This document shows, piece by piece, positions 11,870 to 63,504 of a DNA stretch of 64,000 bases. Below the pieces are notes generated by a model. The model did no database searches. It was not told the origin of the DNA and saw nothing but the letters and a program-made list of their open reading frames with translations. The position numbers were made by a program, and so were the translations under genes. The stretch lies in IMG/VR virus record IMGVR_UViG_3300032235_000623, positions 32,001 through 96,000 of that record, one strand, 5' to 3'. Every line of letters starts with the position of its first letter. Position 1 is the stretch's first letter. This DNA is from a virus.

Positions 11870-12164
11870 ATTAGGAACAGACGAAGACAAGTTCGCTTGG
11901 TGGGACATTGCAGTCTGTTCTGGCATGGAAACAAATCTTTTTTATGATACATACGAGTCTGATCATAATATTGCAAAAAATATTGATCAAGCTTGTTTAT
12001 CTTGTCCAGTTATTGCAATATGCTATAAGAATGGAACTGAGAATAATGAGTATGGAGTTTGGGGCGGAGTTTATTTAAATTTCGGCCAGCACGATAAGCA
12101 AAGAAATACGCATAAGAGTAAAGAGATTTGGAAGGAATTGAAACGTAAACATGCCCAAATCTAA
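11850..12164 (+). CDS. whiB: WhiB-family Fe-S transcription regulator
   Basis: C..C-x2-C-x5-C and GVWGG. Confidence 0.9.
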   Translation: MSNILNELGTDEDKFAWWDIAVCSGMETNLFYDTYESDHNIAKNIDQACLSCPVIAICYKNGTENNEYGVWGGVYLNFGQHDKQRNTHKSKEIWKELKRKHAQI

Positions 12165-26513: not shown

Positions 26514-27729
26514 TTAATTAACTAATTCGTAGTCATATGGGTCAATAGAGTTATCTATCTCTAATTGGATCCATTCTGTTCTATCTGCAGCATCAGCCTT
26601 TTCATAGGCCTCCTGCAAGCTTTCCGCCTCCACCTCCAGATAATACTTGTCTACAAGGTCTCCGAATATTTTGAATTTAGTCATCCTCTTCCTCCTCATC
26701 TTCTTCAAACATTAAGTCTGTCATAATATCATTATCTGTCATCCAGTCACGTACATCTTCGTAGTGCTGTTCTGCCCCGTATTCTAGAGAGAACCCGTGT
26801 CCGTTTTTAACAGACTCACACAGCCTGTCCCATACCTCATCCTCTGACATCTCAAAGCGGTACTCCTCATCGGCCATAAAACCCTTGATTGTGCTCCAGG
26901 TCCATAGCCAAACCAGGGATAGCCCCAGGTCCGTTGTATCTAGGATATCGAGACATTGGTTTAGTTTATCTTTATCTTGTGGCTTCACGTTGCTTGGTCC
27001 TTTCATTAATTGAGAATGCTAATTGATAAGTTAATCCATATACAGCAGTCAAGGCGTCCATATAGCCTTCGTTGTACAGCCGCTCCACAGTGTCATCGTA
27101 GTCTTCATCTGAGCCCAATTCATTTGAGTTCTGTAGAAGAGGAACGAGGACCTGCTCGCATTCATACATCATGTTCTTCAATTCACCATGCAGAATGTCT
27201 GTCCCTGACTCACCAAGGTCGACGAGTTTCTGCAGGCGTGGTTCTAGTTCTGTAGTGTTCATTGGGCCATTATATCCTCTGCCACTGACAAAAAGTGGCG
27301 GGTAGCAATAATCTGTCCATTGATAGAGATATCCTCAATCTCTAAAGACTGATACTCATTTGATTCCATTTCTTCAAATAAATCCATTTCAGCCTGTAGA
27401 GCCTCAGAATCTTGCTCTAAACTAATTAGATGTAACTTCATATATTCGATTAATTGATTAGACATTTACTACCTCATATCTTTGAGTTAATCTATCATAA
27501 TATCTAGCAGCCTGACATGTGCAACTAAATATACCTGGTACATCTGAACATTCCCATTTATGTTCATGCATGATCGAAATACCCTTCTGCCCATAGGCCT
27601 TGTAAGAAATCATGAGCCATAACTAAATAATTATGAATTGCAGGATTATCATCAGCATTGACCAATAGGTCAGCTTGATAAACACCATACGTCATATCTG
27701 CTAAATCTTTTTGTGTGTAGCCCAACATT
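26514..27729 (-). CDS. run of small acidic hypothetical proteins (26514..26684, 26677..26988, 26972..27262, 27259..27465, 27564..27729)
   Basis: Overlapping start/stop coupling. Confidence 0.7.
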
Positions 27730-28665: not shown

Positions 28666-28826
28666 TATCGGCACACTCGCTTTGTTACATATTTGTAATA
28701 TGTATATGCTTTAGAAGATTTATCCTTAACTTGATATCTCTTATATGTACATACCTCAGCATTTGCTGGGGCGGAAACAATAGGAAGTAATCCTAGTATA
28801 ATACCTGCGATAATAGTTTTACGCAT
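28665..28826 (-). CDS. small secreted cationic two-Cys peptide
   Basis: Signal peptide ending ANA; mature EVCTYKRYQVKDKSSKAYTYYKYVTKRVCR; ACGAAAGGA RBS. Confidence 0.7.
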   Translation of the reverse strand: MRKTIIAGIILGLLPIVSAPANAEVCTYKRYQVKDKSSKAYTYYKYVTKRVCR

Positions 28827-28909
28827 TTTATATCCTTTCGTTGATATAAGAGAATTATACATTGGACCACCGACAAATGGAATAGATATGCTGTGTGAAT
28901 TGGACCACA

Positions 28910-28983
28910 TTGTTAGGTTTTGATCAAAGCTTGTTAGGTTTAATTAGATCTATTGTTAGATTTTATCAATCATTGTTAGGTTT
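28910..28983 (+). repeat. iteron-like direct repeats TTGTTAGRTTT x4
   Basis: Starts 28910, 28931, 28953, 28973. Confidence 0.8.
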
Positions 28984-29064
28984 GTGGTCAATATCACAGA
29001 ATTTCAGGAGATTTTGACTTGACCTCGTAAAAGAAATAATGTACTCTCTTGTCTTTGTGGGCAT

Positions 29065-29219
29065 AAAAAGATCCCCCGCCGATACCGCAGTATCAAGCGG
29101 GGGAATTATAGTAGGGCTGCCTGGCCAAACGAAAGGAATTAAGTAAATGCCTGCGTACTTAGCGACTTGGCGAATGCCTTAGTAGCCGCACCCCACATCC
29201 AAAGACAAACTAGTTGCCT
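29065..29219 (-). ncRNA. candidate ~150-nt sRNA with anti-SD tract and terminator
   Basis: TGATATAAT at 29226-29234, nested stems, CCCCCGC..GCGGGGGATCTTTT terminator. Confidence 0.45.
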
Positions 29220-29231
29220 AGGATTATTATA

Positions 29232-30199
29232 TCATACTGGAAGAAGTTCGTCCGAATACTTTTCACAGAATGCGGACAGGTCCATGGTAAATAAAGCCTC
29301 ATTCTTCATTCCACGTACCTTGTTTGACTGATTCCTAAAGTCATCTTGCTCATGAAGACTAAAGGTTTGGTCCTTCCAATTAATTACAGGAATCTTGTGC
29401 TCATTGTCTGATAGAGAGTTGACCTGTAGACCCCAGCCAGTCTCCATATTCCATTGGTCACCAATTAGACGTGATGTAGCAATGCGTGTTGCATATGAAT
29501 CATCGTTCCAACGTGCTCGTGCATGGACTACAGCATCCGCTAAATTCTTTAGCATGTCATAGCCAGCCCAGTGTCCGTATAGTACAATTGTCTCTCCGCT
29601 ATCCTGTACGAATACGAAGTTTGCTCTGTTACCCATTTTATTCCGCCGTTTCTAGTTGAGGTGTTTCTTCTGTCTTATTCAATTCTATAATTTCATATGA
29701 CACCTTGTCAAGTGCCTCTTTATTTTTATTGTAGTGGTGCCCGCAGAAAGCTAGCTCGCCTTCTACTAATTTAATTAAATACATAGCTTGGGCGGACCCA
29801 CATTGGTCGCAGCCAATCCATCTATTTAAATCGTCTGTGCTCATATATTATTCTCTTCGATCATATCAGCAAGACGGTCAAGCAACCAGGTATCGATATC
29901 GTTAATATCAATCTCTCGTAACTTTTCTATGATTTCTTCACGAGCAAATTTATACCCGTCATCAAATCCATCTTTATAATCTGACATATTATCTCCTAAT
30001 AACCTGTTGTTTCATATTCGCTAAAATAAGTTTCAGTTAAGTTAAACTTATCTCTAATGCGACTTACTTTCTCAATACTACCAGTTCCAATGTTGAAAGT
30101 CAACGGTCCAATTAGTTGAGGGTCAAGTCCAGTTATCTCGGCATCCCAGAAGGCCCTTTGCAGGGCCAACTGAGATGGAGCGGTGAGTTCAAAATACAT
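29232..30199 (-). CDS. small hypothetical proteins (29232..29636, 29638..29844 Cys/His-rich, 29996..30199)
   Basis: ORF track, coupled starts. Confidence 0.7.
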
Positions 30200-30855
30200 T
30201 AGTAAGCCTCACGAACATGGCAGACTTCTTGCTCATCAATAACGATGTTGCCATCCTGTGCATCGACATATAGCGCATCTGTAATTTCTGATTCAAGGTC
30301 ATAATCTTCTAATAGATTTAGTGTAATTGTTCCGCTAACTTCAACAGTTGCGGTAAATTCCACATCCTTGGTTAATTCAATGCCAAGCGCTTCAGCAATT
30401 GACTGCAAAGTATCTTGGTCGTCTGAATCAGCATATGACTCAAGAATAATATCTTTAACTGTATTAATCTTAGACTGAAGCAGGCTAACAGTTTTCTGTG
30501 ACTGTCGTCCATTGTGCAGGTCCCACTCAAGAGATGCAACCTTTGATGTTGTATATTCAGGGTCAGAATATCCGTGAATAACTTTATATGTAACTAGTAA
30601 ATCAGGATTGTAAGCAACTGCAGGTGAATGAAATGCATCTGAGCCAATTGTTGTTGTTTCCATCGTTTCCTCTTTCGTTGTAGTTATAGGTGGTATTGTA
30701 GCATCTTCCACTGACAATAATGTGCAATTAGAGTTGCAACGACATGTGAGGTCCATCACACCCGCTGGCCATCCATATCCATCTTTAATTGTATATTCGA
30801 TTAAAGCATCACAGTCTCCCGTGCATACCCAGGTGTATTTCTGATATGTTGTCAT
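30199..30855 (-). CDS. hypothetical protein with internal in-frame promoter/RBS/start at 30663
   Basis: Leaderless-type start 30855; second cassette 30695-30716 inside frame. Confidence 0.65.
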   Translation of the reverse strand: MTTYQKYTWVCTGDCDALIEYTIKDGYGWPAGVMDLTCRCNSNCTLLSVEDATIPPITTTKEETMETTTIGSDAFHSPAVAYNPDLLVTYKVIHGYSDPEYTTSKVASLEWDLHNGRQSQKTVSLLQSKINTVKDIILESYADSDDQDTLQSIAEALGIELTKDVEFTATVEVSGTITLNLLEDYDLESEITDALYVDAQDGNIVIDEQEVCHVREAY

Positions 30856-30980
30856 GGCGAGTATTGTACAGGACCCCACTGACATTTACAAGGATTTTCG
30901 GGAAAAAGCTTTGTGATACGTAACACATTTTTTTGGCCTTCAGATCTGGGGGCATCTCATTATCTGAGATTCAAATCTTG

Positions 30981-31054
30981 CGATCTGTATGGGACTTGAA
31001 CCCACGACCTCTACCGTGACAGGGTAGCGCTCTAACCAACTGAGCTAACAGACC
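30981..31054 (-). tRNA. tRNA-Asp(GUC)
   Basis: GGTCTGT/ACAGATC, loop CTGTCAC, TTCAAGT. Confidence 0.93.
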
Positions 31055-31095
31055 AAATGGTGAGCAGTTTTAAATCTTGCTCAGGATTTTATTAT

Positions 31096-32103
31096 TTAGA
31101 AGGCTTTAACCAACTTCATAATTTTATTTTTTTCTGCAGTTAAGATTGGGTCAAAACCGCTTGCACCCGCCATTAGGGATTCAGAATTTCCACGTGATGT
31201 GCGGAAATAATCTAGACGTTCAGTTAGCGCATTGAATGCACCCCACTTTGTGCCCTTGATATTAGCGTTAGTTGGTGAGTTATGATACAAGTCATCAAGA
31301 AGAACAACTTTGTTTTCCCACTTTGTGAGAGCAATTTTAGATGCATCTTCTTTTGGCTTTGGATAAATTGTCTGAATCAACTTTGAAAATTCGGCGTTAG
31401 TAATCTCTTGCTTGAAGAGTTCCTGCGCTTCTTTTTCAAATTCATCAAAGTAACCAAGTGCAAGACCAAGAGTCTCACGAGCAACTTGAATGCGACCTTC
31501 TACAGATTGCGTGTGGCGAATCTTGAAAGATTGCTTTGCATTACGCATTGCAAGATTCAAAGTGTTTTGGCATACAACACGAACAGGGGTAATTGCTGCT
31601 TGAACAGCAACAGAACCGTCGTGTGATGTCCATACAATTAAATAAAGTTTAGTTGCATCGTTAGCGCCTTGTGGGTCAAGCACCATTGTGCGAGGAATAT
31701 CCACAGTGCCGAAAACAACTTTGCCCTTTTTCAATGAGCCAGCAGATTCCCAACGGCAGTCAGCGTTGGCATCATGAATTGCATCAGCGAATGCAAACAA
31801 TTCTTCATTCTGCACAGGCTTGTAGCGCTTTCCAACAGTTGCAAGAACATCAGTCCCGCCATTGAATGGATTAGTGCGAACAACTAAAGATGAATTTGAA
31901 ACATCGTTCCAAGATTCGTCAATGTGATTTGTGATTGGAGATAAACGAACATCCCAATTTGCTAACTTTGCTTCTTCAAGCATTGTTGCAGTTGTAACTT
32001 CCTCATCTTGTGAGAAGATACGATTTGCAAGGTTGTGCCATGCAGGAGCGCCACGAAGAGCAAATGCAACTTCGCCGTTTTCGACTTCGAGATTGTGAGC
32101 CAT
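31096..32103 (-). CDS. DUF932/DUF945-family (TIGR03299-like) phage protein
   Basis: PAWH.L, VG.RY.PVQN, SHDGS, TPVRVVCQNTL, WGAFNALTE; start MAHNLE after CGAAAGGA. Confidence 0.85.
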   Translation of the reverse strand: MAHNLEVENGEVAFALRGAPAWHNLANRIFSQDEEVTTATMLEEAKLANWDVRLSPITNHIDESWNDVSNSSLVVRTNPFNGGTDVLATVGKRYKPVQNEELFAFADAIHDANADCRWESAGSLKKGKVVFGTVDIPRTMVLDPQGANDATKLYLIVWTSHDGSVAVQAAITPVRVVCQNTLNLAMRNAKQSFKIRHTQSVEGRIQVARETLGLALGYFDEFEKEAQELFKQEITNAEFSKLIQTIYPKPKEDASKIALTKWENKVVLLDDLYHNSPTNANIKGTKWGAFNALTERLDYFRTSRGNSESLMAGASGFDPILTAEKNKIMKLVKAF

Positions 32104-32281
32104 ATTTTTTCCTTTCGGTTGATTGATTTGGCAATTATAGCAGGGGGGTCTGACATTGTAAAGGATTAAAGATAAGATGTCCGAATTGTCTAACGTGATC
32201 AATCTCACAAAATTTTGGGAGTTTTCCACAGCTCGTCGTAAGCCTGTGGATAACCCCTCAGTTGTTGCGGGCACAATTTGA

Positions 32282-32305
32282 GGGGCGGGAAAAAGATCCC
32301 GCCCC
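32282..32305 (-). terminator. GC-rich hairpin terminator
   Basis: GGGGCGGGA..TCCCGCCCC just after stop of 32311..32568. Confidence 0.6.
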
Positions 32306-32310
32306 AAGCT

Positions 32311-34305
32311 TTAAACTAGTCCCAACTCTTCAGAAGTTAGTTTATATTTATTGTGTTTGTTTACTGTTTCCATTGGTAGAAAGATTGCTAGCGTCTTCTG
32401 CTTCTTCTTATTATCATAAACATAAGCACGAACAGTGCCAGCAAATCTACGTAGGTTTGAGAATACCATTTCAGATAGATATTCTCTATTTACTCCCTCA
32501 TCAGAATAAATAGTTAAATCATTTGCTTTGTTATCATCATAGATTTCAACTCTAAAACGATTTTTCATTTGATTACTTTCTGTTAGTAGTTATTTTGGTT
32601 GAGCAGTTTAGCACTTGACTTACTCAGGTCAGGGTTCTTTTGCTTTAGAGTATTCTAACATAGGGGGCTAGTTTTGTCTAGCCCCCATTTTATTAGAGAT
32701 ACTTAGCAATTTGCTTCATAGTAGAAGCATTTACTGTTTCCTCATCTGTCATCTTGAGAATTGTTAGGGCATTTGTGATGTCCTCTACAATTTCATTGTA
32801 TGTGTGTTGGTGCATGATTGTGAAATCACGCTCAGGCTCTTTAGGGAAATCGCTTTCCTTTACAATTAAATCAAAATCAACATTGAGAGAGTTGTTCCAA
32901 GAGCGATAGTTTGTGCGGAAGTTTTCAGCCTTCTTGATGTTTGCAATAGCAAAATCCTGAACTTCCTTACGCCACTTTTCTCTTGACTTCTCATACTTCG
33001 CTTCGTTTGCACCCTGCTCAGCATAGTCTTTCTTGATTGTTGCCAACTTTGTTTCCAAAGCCTTGATTACCTTTGGTGTTGCCACCTTTACTGTGATTGC
33101 TCTTGACATAGTTTTTCCTTTTCTATTTGGTTGAGGTTTTAGTATAACATAGGGGTCTGACAAACCCCGTAGGGTGAGAGTTCTTACTTACGACATTGGG
33201 CGAGAACACTCTCTAAACTGCCCCTGTTTCGATTTACTTACTCAGCGTATGCAGAAGTCCAACGCTCTGTGCCATTTACATCTAGCAAGATACGATTAAC
33301 TCCGCTTGGGTGATTATCAACCGCTTTGATAATACCTGTGATACCGCTTGCTGTTGTTGTGTATGTCTGACCGATTTCCATTTGTTTCTCCTTTGTTTGT
33401 TTGTTGGTAGTATTATAGCCTATGCCACTGACATTTTTAGTCTTCTTCGGTGTAATCTTCCTCACACCAGGCGCTTAGGTGGTGCTGTTCAATAATTGCC
33501 CAGGCAGGCGCTGTATCCATGCCTCGATAAGATACTCCTTCAGGCATTGAGATTTCACGATTTAGATCGTCTTCCCAGTATGCATCTATAGCATCTATGC
33601 AAGGTTGCACCATTGATAGCGGGACGGGTGGATAGTGATTACCCTGTAAGTGATAACCAATTGAAGCTTCTAGGCTTAAGCCCAATTCATCTGTTGCTAA
33701 TTCATAAGCAAGATTACTTCCCATTTATAACCTCGTTTCCAATAGTTTCCATTTCGTCAATAGACTCCATAAGTTCTTTTACTTGACTTTCGGTAAGTAG
33801 AATTTTAGTTGCCTTATCTACTGCAAGGCTAGCGATAGCGCATGAGTAAAGATAAATTCCTTTAGCAAATTCTTCATTACTCATTTCGTTATGATTATGT
33901 GTTAGGTATCCAGCAAGCCCCATAACTTCTTCGTCCATTATAGAGTCGCTAGTTGCTTCGATTAGAGCATAAGCGGTTGATAGCATTTTTTCCCTTTCGT
34001 TTGTTTTATGGAATTATAGCAGGTGGGTCTGACAAGCAGACCCACCCTATCAATTATGCTAGGGCTATGTAAGCCTGAGAGTAGCCTTCATTTACACGGT
34101 CAAGTTCATCCTGAATTTCAGACTTAGACATTAGAGAAACTTTGCCGATTAACTCACGAATAGCGCCTTCGTTCATCTGATTAAAGATAGCGGTTGGCAT
34201 TTTGCTTACTTGCTGATACATTGAACCTTCGATATCCAGTTTAGATACGAATTCTACGCCATCAACTGTGAATGGAAATAATGCCCATCTAGTCATATCT
34301 TTCAT
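32311..34305 (-). CDS. small hypothetical proteins (32311..32568, 32693..33109, 33238..33381, 33437..33724, 33714..33986, 34054..34305)
   Basis: Most have their own promoter copy and RBS. Confidence 0.7.
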
Positions 34306-34485
34306 TGTTTTACCTTTCGTTTGTGTTATGCGAGTATTATAGCGGAATGCTCTGACAAATCATAATCCATTTACGGCGTGTCGCAGCTTTTGTGATAAAC
34401 CTCACAAATTTTCAGGGTTTTCCACAGGTACCCGTAAATTGTGGATAACCCCCACGCCTTTGCGGGCATTTAGTTGAAATTTCAA

Positions 34486-36861
34486 CTAATTAAAAAATGG
34501 AGCTACAAGATCACAATAAGTTTTTAAATATTTTTCTTTTTTGTGTTTTGTTTTGCGTGTGTATTTTTTCTTTGAGGGGATCGGAGTCGCCGCATTACTG
34601 CGGCGCAACTCCTGAACCTTCTTTACTTTTTCTGTTGCCATTTTATCCTCTCGAATTAAAACTAGGAACTTGATAACCACTCGCCTCATGAAATTTTGTT
34701 ACGTTAAAATTTGGATTTTCTTTTGCACACAATTCTGAAAAATCTAAAACCATTTTAGAAAAAACAGCGGGATGAGTTTTGTTAGAATTATACTTAAGAA
34801 TTTCAGCGATAGCCTCGAAGTGCTTGCGTGTCATTGTCATACTGTTACAACCTTTCGTCCTTCACGATAGAAAATTTTTGTGTAGCATTTTGCAGATGGT
34901 GTAAAGATATTTACAGTTGAGTATTCGTTAGCGAAACCCCAATCTGTGAAAGCAAAAAAATCTTTCCATGCTGCCATTTCATCATCATATTCATGAGACC
35001 AATGCGGAGCATTTGAATCATAAGCCAAAGTAATTTTATACATTAGATATTCCAATCGTCTAGAGCACACTCACACGCTTCTACATCATAATTATTTTCA
35101 TCTCCCCAAAATAGGAAACCTGCACCACCGCACTCATCACAAGCAACGGCAATAATTTCTTTTAAGTCTGACATTAGTTTTCCTTTCGTTCTGTTGTTGA
35201 AATTGTAGCAGATAGCACCGACAAGGCTTCGGATTTGCTTGCTTGGCGTGTCGCTAGGATATGAGCCTTAAATTCTTCTAGGTTCATTAGAGAGCACCTT
35301 CCTGAAATAACTCGATTTCGATATCTAACTTTTTTTCATCTGATAATTCATCGAACGAAACCCAGCCTGCGCCTTCTTCGTCCATTTTAAAAAATTCAAT
35401 GTATCCCATTATTATTCACCTACCTTTACTGCAACTGTTCGGAAAGTTGTGCGGAAAGAGTTTTTAGGTTGAACCTCGACAAGATAAGAATCGCAACCTT
35501 CATACCAAACCGCTTTAGGGTGAGGTTCTGCGTTAATGATAATTCCCTCAAGAGTCTTTGAGAAATATTGCTTACCTACTAAGAGGTTCTGGACTGAATA
35601 TACATTTGCTGACATGGTGTCCGCCTTTCGTTTGTTTCTATATCTGGAATTATACACGAACGGACTGACATTTTCCAATTTGGCAAGGGTTTGTCTCAAT
35701 ATGTGGAGCGTGGGCTATGTGATAAGCATCACACGCCTAATGTGATAACCATCACACCAAAATGTCCGTTTTGTCTGTCAAATCGACACGCCGTAGAATT
35801 TGGGGCTTTTGATAACGATTACGTAACGACACGCCCGACGCCGCAGTATTTGCGGGCCAGCTTGATTTTGTCAAGTCGACACGCCGTTAGTTAGCGAAAA
35901 TCTTTTATGACTTCCCTCACATCTTGTTTTAATTCGTGCCACATCATGCGCCCCATATATAGGGCGGGGATCGCAAGGGCTAATTGTACTAGTGTGGTTA
36001 GTAGTCTATTCATTACTTATCTCCAAACATATCGAAAACTTCATCTAGTTGTTCATCTGTTAAGTGGTCAATACTAATAGCCTTAGTAAATCCGAACACA
36101 TCTTCTTCTTCTGCCATTAGATTTTCATACATTTCTTCTTCTGCTAGGTGTGCGTACTGGTCGCTTACATCTGCTTGAATAGTATCCCATTTAGTCATCA
36201 TTACTTATTTACCTCTACTTCTCTAACGATAAAGGAAAACCCTTTACCTAATTTGTTTAGTTCTTCAATTACGGCTAAGATTTCTTCGGGCTTATTAGCC
36301 TTGTTATTAACGCTTAGTAGTTGAGAGCCTTGCCATAGTGAGTAAGTGATAGTCATTCGTTTTCTTCTTTCGTTAGTTTGTTTAATAAGATTAAGGTACT
36401 ACATAGGGCTGACATTTGCAACCCTAAAGGGGGTGTGTTGCGTGTGAGTTACCTCACAGGCAGTTTATACACTCACAACCCTTAGAGCGGATAAGGTAGG
36501 CTAACACCTCTTTACGGGTATAAGCGTCTAGACCATAGGAGGACTTAACGCCTCCATTGTGGTATTCATGCACGATAGTGCTAAATAGTGTTTCTGTTAG
36601 TTGAGTCATTTGTGACTCCTTTCGTTTATTTATTAGGATAATCTTTTCATACTTATTTAATTTTTTCAAGTCTATTTGGTGTGGTGTCTATCACACTAGG
36701 CTAGGGGACTTATCGTAGGTGTAGCCTACGCCTGTCTCATAGTATGCGAACATCTGTTCGGTTTTATGAGTTCTATCTACTGTGCAGAACATGTCCTGCG
36801 GTTCGCCTGTCCAATTACAGGAGAGGCACTTACTTACTAGGTGTGATAATACTTTTGTCAT
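34486..36861 (-). CDS. small hypothetical proteins (34486..34641, 34643..34840, 34837..35043, 35412..35615, 36013..36201, 36454..36609, 36691..36861 and shorter ones)
   Basis: RBS cassettes and coupling. Confidence 0.65.
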
Positions 36862-61576: not shown

Positions 61577-61924
61577 ATGGATATCAAAAGAACTGGTTTT
61601 AAAATCAATGATCACGAGACAACCCTCGGAATATATGTCTGGGAAATGCCAGATGGACGCTGGATTGGCGACGATGACGGAAACTTTCTTTCTATAACTG
61701 CAAAAGAAGGCAATAGAGAAAGAATGAATTTGTTAGCAGATGCTGTTAGGTCTTACGGAATCTACGAAGGCAAGCCAAAGTTCCTTTCTGGCAGAAGAAA
61801 GATTGATGACGAAGAATTTGAGTATCAGCAACAAAGATTAAGATGGGGCCTAACTCCAGATCCTTTGGACATCGGAGTTTATAAAGATGAAATGAAGGCT
61901 CTAAAGAATAGCGGTGGAAAATGA
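61577..61924 (+). CDS. hypothetical protein upstream of portal
   Basis: ORF track; coupled to portal. Confidence 0.7.
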   Translation: MDIKRTGFKINDHETTLGIYVWEMPDGRWIGDDDGNFLSITAKEGNRERMNLLADAVRSYGIYEGKPKFLSGRRKIDDEEFEYQQQRLRWGLTPDPLDIGVYKDEMKALKNSGGK

Positions 61925-63504
61925 TAGAATTTGAAGACGACATGGGTAGCTCTAACGAAGTAGAAATAACAAACACTTCTGACTGGATGAAGTTTTCTTC
62001 TGCACCAGTTCAGAAAACAAATGATCCGTTCCGTGTAGAGAATGACGACCTGCTAAAGATTTCTGGAATCTCTCCAACCTTCAGAAGAAAAGTAAGTAGA
62101 GATTTACAAAAACGATTTGCAGGAATTGACGGTGCTGAAACTCAGCAAAACCTACTTCAGCAAGCGGTAACTGGCTATGCAATGTTTGATTTGGTTGAGC
62201 CACCGTACAACCTAGAGTACCTATCTTCAATTTATGAAATTTCCCCATATAATTACGCTGCTATTAATGCCAAGGTTGCAAACATTGTTGGCTTAGGTTT
62301 TGATTTTATTGAGAGCAGAAAAACAAACGATGCTTTGGATGAAATTGAAGATGATAAGCAATTAGAAAGAGCAAGAAGAAAGCTTAGTAGAATCAGACAA
62401 GATCTTCATGAGTGGCTGGAAGATTGTAACGAAGAAGAAACATTTAAAGAAACATTAATAAAGTTCTACACCGATGTAGAAGCAACAGGAAACGGGTACT
62501 TAGAAATAGGTAGAACCACATCTGGAAAGATTGGTTATATTGGACATATTCCAGCAAAGACAATGAGAGTTCGTCGTCTTCGTGACGGATTTATTCAGTT
62601 GCTTTATGGAAAGGCAGTTTACTTTAGAAACTTTGGAGATCAGGAAACACCAAATCCGATTGCAGGTGGATTAGATAGACCTAACGAAATTATTCATTTA
62701 AAGAAGTACACTCCAAAGAATAACTATTATGGAATTCCAGATATCATTGCTGCACAGAATGCGATGGCAGGTAATGAATTTGCTGGAAAGTACAACTTGG
62801 ACTATTTTGAAAATAAGGCTGTACCAAGATATATTATTACAGTCAAGGGTGCAAAGCTTTCATCTGAGTCAGAGAGAAAGCTTCTTGAGTTTTTCCAAGT
62901 TGGACTAAAGGGCAAAAATCATAGATCTTTGTATATACCCCTTCCAGCAGACTCACCAGATTCTAAGGTTGAATTTAAGATGGAGCCAATTGAGGCGGGT
63001 TCACAGGAGTCATCATTTAACGTTTATAGAACTGCAAACAGAGATGAAATATTAATGGCTCACAGAACTCCAATTAATAAAATTGGTACACCAGCTGGAG
63101 TTAATTTAGCTACAGCAAGAGATGCAGATAAGACTTTTAAAGAGCAGGTATGTAGACCAGCTCAAGAAAATCTTGAGAAGAAATTAAATAAAATCATTGA
63201 AGAAATGACAGATGCGCTTAAATTAAAATTTAATGAGCTTACTCTTACAGATGAAGATACTCAGTCAAAAATTGATGAAAGGTATTTGCGTTTCCAGGTT
63301 TTGACTCCGAATGAAATTAGACTTAGAATGGGCTTAGTCCCTAGAGAAGGCGGAGACAGCCCTGTTGACTTACAGGCGCAGGCAGCTGAAGTAAAATCTC
63401 AAGCATTACAAACTAGAACTAGAGACCAGGAAAGATCTGCAAATTCCCCAGATTCTTCAGGAGAAGGTAGAAATGCAAAGGGAGACGGAAGACAGGTCGA
63501 GTAG
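61921..63504 (+). CDS. portal protein
   Basis: TGNGYLE, EIIH.K, YYGIPDI, YFEN.AVP, TPNEIR..MGL.P. Confidence 0.92.
   Translation: MIEFEDDMGSSNEVEITNTSDWMKFSSAPVQKTNDPFRVENDDLLKISGISPTFRRKVSRDLQKRFAGIDGAETQQNLLQQAVTGYAMFDLVEPPYNLEYLSSIYEISPYNYAAINAKVANIVGLGFDFIESRKTNDALDEIEDDKQLERARRKLSRIRQDLHEWLEDCNEEETFKETLIKFYTDVEATGNGYLEIGRTTSGKIGYIGHIPAKTMRVRRLRDGFIQLLYGKAVYFRNFGDQETPNPIAGGLDRPNEIIHLKKYTPKNNYYGIPDIIAAQNAMAGNEFAGKYNLDYFENKAVPRYIITVKGAKLSSESERKLLEFFQVGLKGKNHRSLYIPLPADSPDSKVEFKMEPIEAGSQESSFNVYRTANRDEILMAHRTPINKIGTPAGVNLATARDADKTFKEQVCRPAQENLEKKLNKIIEEMTDALKLKFNELTLTDEDTQSKIDERYLRFQVLTPNEIRLRMGLVPREGGDSPVDLQAQAAEVKSQALQTRTRDQERSANSPDSSGEGRNAKGDGRQVE

Follow-up and report, generated by a model that had tools for sequence, protein, structure and literature searches.

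Organization of the small-RNA locus

The window, by which is meant the whole stretch of 64,000 nucleotides that was analysed, is part of the 108,849-bp IMG/VR phage record IMGVR_UViG_3300032235_000623, and positions are those of the window unless another record is named. On its minus strand, an interval free of open reading frames extends from the stop codon of a gene at 29232-29636 to the next ATG at 28826. An earlier examination of these letters, referred to here as the sequence-only reading, had pointed out this interval together with an extended -10 element and a terminator, and each of these features is present: the extended -10 promoter TGATATAAT lies at 29226-29234 (-), with the TGA stop of the upstream gene embedded in it, the predicted start of the RNA is near 29219 (-), and the intrinsic terminator at 29065-29103 (-) consists of a hairpin (29103-29073) with arms CCCCCGC and GCGGGGG followed by the U-run AUCUUUUU (29071-29065). 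These signals describe a small-RNA unit made up of an extended -10 promoter, an RNA of about 155 nt and a hairpin terminator. They are also common in the family to which the RNA belongs, since TGnTATAAT occurs 3-36 nt upstream of P1, the closing stem of the structure described below, in 41 of 62 unique members, and a crude test found a hairpin with a T-run 3' of the RNA in 46 of the 62 variants. No conserved ORF was found on either strand of the RNA interval, and, as judged from the sequence signals, the RNA appears to have a transcription unit of its own outside coding sequence.

The gene that precedes the RNA (29232-29636, minus strand) encodes a protein of 134 amino acids belonging to phrog_31860, ends in TGA, and is always found in this position. 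Its protein has no Pfam family and no sequence match in the PDB; it yields a confident alpha/beta model (pLDDT 88) for which no fold match was found, and none of these comparisons (Pfam, PDB sequence, fold) gives any hint of an RNA partner.

In metatranscriptome runs X17-X20 the early genes of relatives are covered, and the RNA interval is almost without cover at 90% likeness. One exact metatranscriptome contig of 225 nt corresponds to 29165-29384 and joins the 3' end of the upstream gene to the 5' half of the RNA; because metatranscriptome contigs carry neither strand nor ends, this contig is neutral with respect to expression of the RNA.

Immediately 3' of the terminator there is a conserved non-coding block at 29063-28995 (-), with the pattern GCCCRCAAAG..GRGGGTA..TTTACG..GTCAA..TTTCCTGRAAT, which is kept in nearly all relatives and which recurs at about 34468-34425 (-) and upstream of other early promoters. 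Between this block and the next early promoter a sequence of about 13 nt (AAACCTAACAATG-like) occurs as four direct repeats (28925-28990), which were not seen at the same place in most relatives.

Distribution and novelty of the RNA family

Relatives of the locus were collected by means of the upstream protein, which identified 35 viral contigs at 53-93% identity. A homologous RNA lies directly downstream of the upstream gene in all 35 of these protein-anchored loci, in 25 distinct versions. With a covariance model of the RNA, each of 81 loci gives exactly one strong match and each of four near-complete genomes a single strong copy, and a motif scan places the RNA on at least 120 viral contigs.

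The RNA family is new, in that it is not in Rfam, and so is its three-way-junction architecture. Scans of the window and five relatives against Rfam 15, which includes C4 antisense RNA, 6C, riboswitches and freshwater motifs, gave no match except tRNAs; the best Rfam match in the region, to NsiR1, scored 20.8 bits, where the gathering score is 39, and covered the terminator only. No description of the family was found in literature searches, and DNA searches of cultured phages, near and distant, gave no match.

Conserved secondary structure

RNAalifold, applied to 26 sequences, gives a three-way junction as the consensus structure; of its 18 pairs, 9 show compensatory changes. In the window copy, a 5' leader at 29197-29219 (-), assigned by inspection only, is of variable length in the family and contains a small hairpin (UAGGC..GCCUA) in many relatives. 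It is followed by the 5' strand of P1, GUGGGGU (29190-29196, -), which pairs with the 3' strand GCCCUAC (29111-29117, -), and the two enclose the stem P2, GCGGCU/AGUCGC, which closes an inner hairpin GGC-AUUC-GCC (29162-29189, -), the junction strand J2/3, UAAGUAC (29155-29161, -; YUAANUAA in the consensus of the family alignments), and the hairpin P3 (29119-29154, -), whose stem GCAGGC / GCC-AG-GC carries a loop of 23 nt. P2, P3 and the 3' strand of P1 rest on covariation as well as on the RNAalifold consensus.

Covariation among relatives was the check that the sequence-only reading had recommended, and it clearly favours a structured RNA. In the model-based alignment, 97.6% of the cells at paired positions can form pairs, compared with 79.2% in shuffles, and there are 83 cells with double changes, compared with 25 in shuffles; as a control for the first figure, sliding the partners by 1-3 columns leaves only 25-49% of the cells paired. 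The four outer pairs of P1 have changed on both sides in 7-15 of the 26 sequences, and compensatory changes occur in two of the six pairs of P2 (A-U, G-C, C-G in one; G-U, A-U, U-A in the other) and in three of the five pairs of the P3 stem. Three nested stems had been proposed from the letters of this one copy, and they fare differently. GTGGGG/CCCTAC corresponds to P1, the true closing stem, and covaries. The pairing GGCTA/TGGCC finds no support, since covariation instead pairs GCGGCU with AGUCGC in P2 and GCAGGC with GCC..GC in P3. The pairing TAAGTA/TACTTA, which would join J2/3 to the 5' part of the P3 loop, can form in this copy; at least 6 contiguous pairs of this kind are available in 36 of the 62 members, and the rest are at the level of chance. 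The junction itself contains the conserved elements GGUGC, YUAANUAA and AGCAGCC, and it is more elaborate than would be needed for a plain carrier of a seed.

The invariant loop octamer

The tract UUCCUUUCGUUU, which had been singled out as unpaired and complementary to the ribosome sites of early genes, occupies 29127-29138 (-) within the P3 loop, and its conservation, on which the proposal depended, is strong in the part that contains the octamer CUUUCGUU (29135-29128, -), which is invariant while the stems around it vary. Two collections that were assembled without regard to the octamer agree on this point. It is invariant in the 25 unique protein-anchored sequences, a set collected without reference to the RNA, and a seed-blind scan, whose pattern consisted of the junction strand and 3' junction alone (CTAAGTAANGCAG...TAGCAGCC), recovered 79 contigs with 26 distinct P3 segments and found the octamer in 79 of 79. 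The octamer is unpaired in the consensus fold, and its mean unpaired probability is 0.66, compared with 0.39 for the rest of the RNA. What the RNA displays is a conserved single-stranded seed within a variable scaffold. The P3 loop as a whole ranges from 19 to 27 nt across the family.

In the motif-anchored variants the loop has the form UU-[A/C/U]-CUUUCGUU-[G/U]-G, of which UUACUUUCG, UUUCUUUCG and UUCCUUUCG are examples, and the base adjoining the octamer is A in 21, C in 24 and U in 17 of the 62 variants. This distribution bears on the earlier suggestion that the tract mimics the 16S 3' sequence UCCUUUC, because the variable base is the one that completes UCC, and the mimicry is therefore not a conserved property of the family.

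The early ribosome-site tag

The sequence-only reading held that many early genes share a ribosome-binding site complementary to the tract. Both the sharing and the complementarity are borne out. The tag AACGAAAGG is present at all six of the places that it named, namely at 28834-28842 (separated by 7 nt from the ATG at 28826 and by 11 nt from the preceding TATAAT), at 33993-34001 (before the ATG at 33986, where with its flank it provides 11 nt complementary to the loop), at 34313-34321 (ATG 34305), at 35182-35190 (ATG 35174), at 35624-35632 (ATG 35615) and at 36618-36626 (ATG 36609). Four near-variants can be added: AACGAAAGA(GG) at 30671-30679 (ATG 30663), ACCGAAAGG at 32111-32119 (ATG 32103, the start of a DUF932 gene), GACGAAAGG at 34851-34859 (ATG 34840), and AACGAAAGA at 36366-36374 (ATG 36356). 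All ten sites belong to the minus strand and fall within 28834-36626, so that AACGAAAG(G) or a one-base variant of it precedes ten minus-strand start codons from 28826 to 36609. The distribution of the core AACGAAAG over the 108.8-kb genome is correspondingly uneven. It occurs nine times on the minus strand, and eight of these occurrences lie 4-11 nt before an ATG within one 7.8-kb block; on the plus strand of the whole genome it occurs once, and that one occurrence is the antisense of the RNA loop.

The distance from tag to ATG is 7 +/- 1 nt in most cases, while the distance from tag to -10 element ranges over 11-16 nt, and because the first spacing is fixed and the second variable, the tag belongs to the ribosome site and not to the promoter. 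Nine of the ten tags lie just 3' of a promoter in which TATAAT is preceded, at 10-11 nt, by a TGTCAG/TGTCGG box, the only tag for which no promoter was seen just upstream being the variant at 34851-34859, and the downstream genes of the same early units are untagged. The tag therefore marks the 5'-proximal cistron of each early transcript, where it lies about 5-20 nt from the predicted 5' end of the mRNA. The early leaders are short, A-rich and without inhibitory structure. Plus-strand genes use AGGAG/GGAGG ribosome sites, none of which occur in the early block.

The same tag is found in all relatives, in several copies per locus. The four near-complete genomes each have 5-8 tags, confined to a single strand and clustered around the RNA gene in three of them and just upstream of it in the fourth, and tag and RNA co-occur in all four. 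The Streptomyces phage BillNye has no tag, and its genome gives only a weak match to the covariance model (18.8 bits), without a tag-matching loop.

The RNA's own promoter has no TGTCAG box, unlike the promoters of the early genes, which suggests two promoter classes with different regulation. Within the early promoters (28850-36700, -) the TGTCAG/TGTCGG box is too close to TATAAT to be a -35 element, and many of these promoters are preceded by palindromes resembling TGTGA-N6-TCACA. A gene at 27262-26972 (-) looks leaderless, with TGTCAG-N10-TATAAT followed by 6 nt and the ATG (27262-27290).

Complementarity of loop and tag

The RNA and the tagged mRNAs come from the same strand, and the loop is therefore antisense to the tag in trans. 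At the ten tagged sites of the window, 9-12 contiguous pairs between loop and tag are possible; at 33986, 34305 and 35615, for example, CAAACGAAAGG pairs with CCUUUCGUUUG. The regions to which the loop is complementary are thus the translation-initiation regions of the presumed targets. A duplex scan of the 23-nt loop against both strands of the genome placed tagged ribosome sites as the two best non-self sites and as 6 of the best 15, the best of all non-self duplexes being that with the tag before the ATG at 33986 (-17.6 kcal/mol). The energies themselves are not diagnostic. Duplexes between loop and tag range from -14 to -18 kcal/mol, while shuffled loops reach -19 kcal/mol somewhere in the genome, so duplex energy alone was discarded as a proof that the tags are singled out, and because shuffled loops match these energies the argument for pairing rests instead on recurrence and conservation.

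Compensatory change between loop and tag, which would ordinarily be sought as evidence of an interaction, does not occur, because the octamer and the core of the tag are both invariant. Only the flanks can vary, and there cognate loops pair slightly better with their tags than permuted loops do (p about 0.025 upstream and about 0.3 downstream, with kinship ignored). Where C adjoins the octamer in the loop, the next base of the tag is G in 91% of sites, compared with about 69% elsewhere, and a G upstream of AACG is found almost exclusively in phages with C or U at that loop position; both comparisons are confounded by relatedness, and the flank pattern between G and C is suggestive only. An A next to the octamer, which is found in a third of the variants, leaves a shorter duplex.

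The 16S rRNA is the other natural partner of a ribosome site. Actinobacteria share the 16S tail ending in CCUCCUUUCU, which is common among Gram-positive bacteria and may be that of the host. A tail of this sequence would pair with GAAAGG(A) of the tag and not with AAC, which the invariant GUU of the RNA does reach. With a 16S 3' tail ending in CCUUUCU the tag could form 6-7 pairs, and the duplex between loop and tag is longer. Since GUU is invariant and UCC is not conserved, the target is the private tag of the phage, and not Shine-Dalgarno sites generally. The sequence-only reading had supposed that the RNA could shut off SD-led translation in the host, and this part of its proposal finds no support, because the invariant CUUUCGUU runs into GUU and so pairs with the tag's AAC beyond the reach of the 16S tail. 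Nor would the escaping phage genes be mainly leaderless, as it had also envisaged, since the plus-strand genes carry AGGAG/GGAGG and a single leaderless-looking gene (27262) was seen.

Host and abundance of the phage group

The phage encodes a WhiB-family protein (11898-12071, +; PF02467, 37.6 bits), and its portal protein is 57% identical to those of Streptomyces phages, including the cultured relative BillNye; these two features point to an actinobacterial host. Phage DNA is present in freshwater metagenomes, and the host is most likely a freshwater actinobacterium. A scan of bacterial genomes for the host gave three true matches, on contigs of 2.9-3.5 kb in metagenome-assembled genomes assigned to Bacteroidia, to Polynucleobacter and to an unclassified bacterium. 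These were left out of the host assignment because such short contigs are probably mis-binned phage.

The portal gene (61921-63504, +) has relatives on at least 600 IMG/VR viral contigs, at 77-88% identity, and the phage group is therefore very common in lakes and metagenomes. A portal-anchored search for distant lineages returned, among the matches listed, only these close relatives (77-88% identical). Since at least 120 viral contigs carry the RNA in so common a group, it is among the more widespread of undescribed phage RNAs.

Proposed function

The most conserved single-stranded tract of the RNA is complementary to the promoter-proximal early ribosome sites, and translational repression of the early genes is therefore the best reading of the locus. 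In this reading the RNA would act in trans as a small RNA occluding early-gene ribosome sites, a proposal that, resting as it does on sequence, we hold with about as much doubt as belief. The early-gene part of the shut-off that had been proposed from the letters thus stands as the preferred explanation, now attached to a conserved, structured RNA, while the host part finds no support, for the reasons given above.

The steps may be pictured as follows. The host's primary-sigma polymerase would transcribe the minus strand from the extended -10 element, producing a stand-alone RNA of about 155 nt that ends at the intrinsic terminator. The three-way junction would present the P3 loop, in which CUUUCGUU together with 1-4 flanking bases would pair in trans with the tag AACGAAAG(G), which in this scheme is the ribosome-binding site of the first gene in each early transcription unit. 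The duplex would cover the Shine-Dalgarno element, and as the stable RNA accumulated during infection, binding of the 30S subunit to tagged early mRNAs would be blocked, so that translation of the early genes would be reduced as a class and that of genes with AGGAG/GGAGG sites would continue. Of the two possible directions, repression is favoured over activation, since it is the ribosome site that the duplex covers, and since the leaders are short and lack structure. In actinobacteria, small-RNA pairing that is mediated by loops and independent of chaperones has been documented for the 6C sRNA (PMC6486639).

If this mechanism holds, the timing of gene expression in a large lytic phage rests on two classes of ribosome site, one of which is read by a single small RNA, and the system is an RNA counterpart of T4 RegA/RegB. 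The pair formed by tag and loop, if it operates as proposed, would be a compact orthogonal translation switch for actinobacteria. There is a further possibility, which is speculative and which we consider rather improbable, that RNA and tag constitute a group-wide RNA immunity code, in which the phage's own early genes and those of tagged superinfecting relatives are both silenced and the scaffold recruits a partner. The reasoning is that hundreds of co-occurring freshwater actinophage variants have the same loop and the same tag, so a resident phage would silence tagged relatives that superinfect; in that event one RNA molecule would combine an early-gene switch with superinfection exclusion.

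Alternative explanations

The RNA could be a structured non-coding RNA with some other job, such as the binding or titration of a protein, the sensing of a ligand, or catalysis, in which the octamer serves that job and its complementarity to the tag is incidental. The highly conserved and compact junction, which exceeds the needs of a seed carrier, is what such a job would lead one to expect, as are the absence of covariation between loop and tag and the possible existence of a scaffold-only relative in Streptomyces phages (described below). It would then be a coincidence that the sole plus-strand copy of the early-ribosome-site 8-mer falls exactly in the exposed loop, and that RNA and tag co-occur; there is in addition no Rfam family, riboswitch or ribozyme match, and nothing found for the neighbouring protein hints at an RNA partner. 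An incidental match is on balance unlikely, though it deserves to be taken seriously. A different possibility accepts the pairing and reverses its sign or purpose, the RNA serving to protect, stabilize or buffer the short 5' ends of the early mRNAs. The nearness of the tag to the predicted 5' ends (about 5-20 nt) means that a duplex could hinder RNases that depend on the 5' end, yet the same duplex covers the Shine-Dalgarno element itself, and the short, A-rich leaders have no inhibitory structure for it to open; a protective role accordingly seems improbable.

An action in cis is suggested by the order of elements, since a promoter, a three-way junction and a terminator followed by genes on the same strand is the arrangement of a riboswitch-like leader or attenuator that controls read-through into downstream genes, and the possible Streptomyces-phage relative lies in a 5' UTR without a terminator. 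However, about 230 nt and a separate conserved promoter intervene between the RNA terminator and the next gene, the sequence and distance of the terminator are free to vary among relatives, and inspection of the window copy and one relative revealed no conserved antiterminator pairing, so that the chance of attenuation appears slim. Smaller still is the likelihood that the RNA imitates the 16S 3' tail, whether it would act as decoy for some host factor or toxin directed against UCCUU-type sequences or would soak up host Shine-Dalgarno sites in general. The window copy does read UUCCUUUC, which is like the tail ending CCUCCUUUCU that is common in Gram-positive bacteria (PMC6288834), but the UCC in it is not conserved, as the counts given above for the 62 variants demonstrate, and the part that is conserved continues into GUU, which is absent from 16S rRNA. 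Finally, the sequence-only reading had offered as its own alternative that the tract is, on the plus strand, a ribosome site for an 11-aa ORF at 29147-29182. That ORF exists here, with AACGAAAGG followed 9 nt on by an ATG and 11 codons, but only 11 of the 62 variants have any start codon after the antisense tag, the peptides are unrelated, the surrounding genes and signals without exception use the minus strand, and the covariation preserves RNA pairing; we attach practically no weight to the micro-ORF.

Relation to known systems

The principle that a phage or bacterial antisense RNA can occlude a ribosome site is already known, and what appears to be new in the antisense repression favoured here, beyond the RNA family itself, is the presumed regulon, about ten early transcription units that share a private extended ribosome-site tag, in very abundant freshwater actinophages. 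The c4 antisense RNA of phages P1 and P7 and the sar RNA of P22 are structured phage antisense RNAs that occlude the ribosome site of a phage gene, each acting on one operon (icd-ant, or ant) for immunity. Unlike them, the present RNA matches about ten separate early transcription units, and it has no Rfam match. In phage T4, RegA represses translation and RegB cleaves the GGAG of early ribosome sites. The likeness to RegA/RegB lies in a class-wide shut-off of early translation by way of a feature common to the early ribosome sites, and the difference is that the T4 effectors are proteins, whereas the effector proposed here is an RNA and the feature an extended private tag.

The Cuckoo / CcsR sRNAs of Alphaproteobacteria likewise combine an invariant, pyrimidine-rich loop motif of the anti-Shine-Dalgarno type with stems that are free to vary (PMC4615179). 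They are built from 2-4 adjacent hairpins, each with CCUCCUCCC, whereas the phage RNA has a single loop with CUUUCGUU on a three-way junction and so lacks the defining set of two to four CCUCCUCCC hairpins (PMC4615179). It also differs from them in being phage-encoded and in that its presumed target is a private tag carried by early genes of the phage itself, and the Rfam scans showed no sequence or model similarity between the two. The 6C sRNA of Actinobacteria, a multi-target sRNA in a phylum without Hfq, likewise binds mRNAs through exposed conserved loops, but it is a host gene whose C-rich loops are carried on two hairpins, and the phage RNA differs from it in motif and fold (PMC6486639); no 6C-type match was obtained in the Rfam scans.

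The Streptomyces phages BillNye, Byblos, Wakanda and Ankus share an RNA element in a 5' UTR (at about 115,830-115,945 of BillNye, NC_042105.1), which has a TTGACA-17-TACAAT promoter, a 5' hairpin, the invariant single strand CUAAGCACAACAUAAGCAGG and no terminator, and whose P1 and P2 stems show compensatory changes among the four phages. This element resembles P1, P2 and J2/3 of the freshwater RNA without the P3 loop, and the model score of 18.8 bits (E 0.06) makes a common origin of the two possible. Because this possible homologue has P1, P2 and the junction strand and no P3 loop, the scaffold may have a function of its own.
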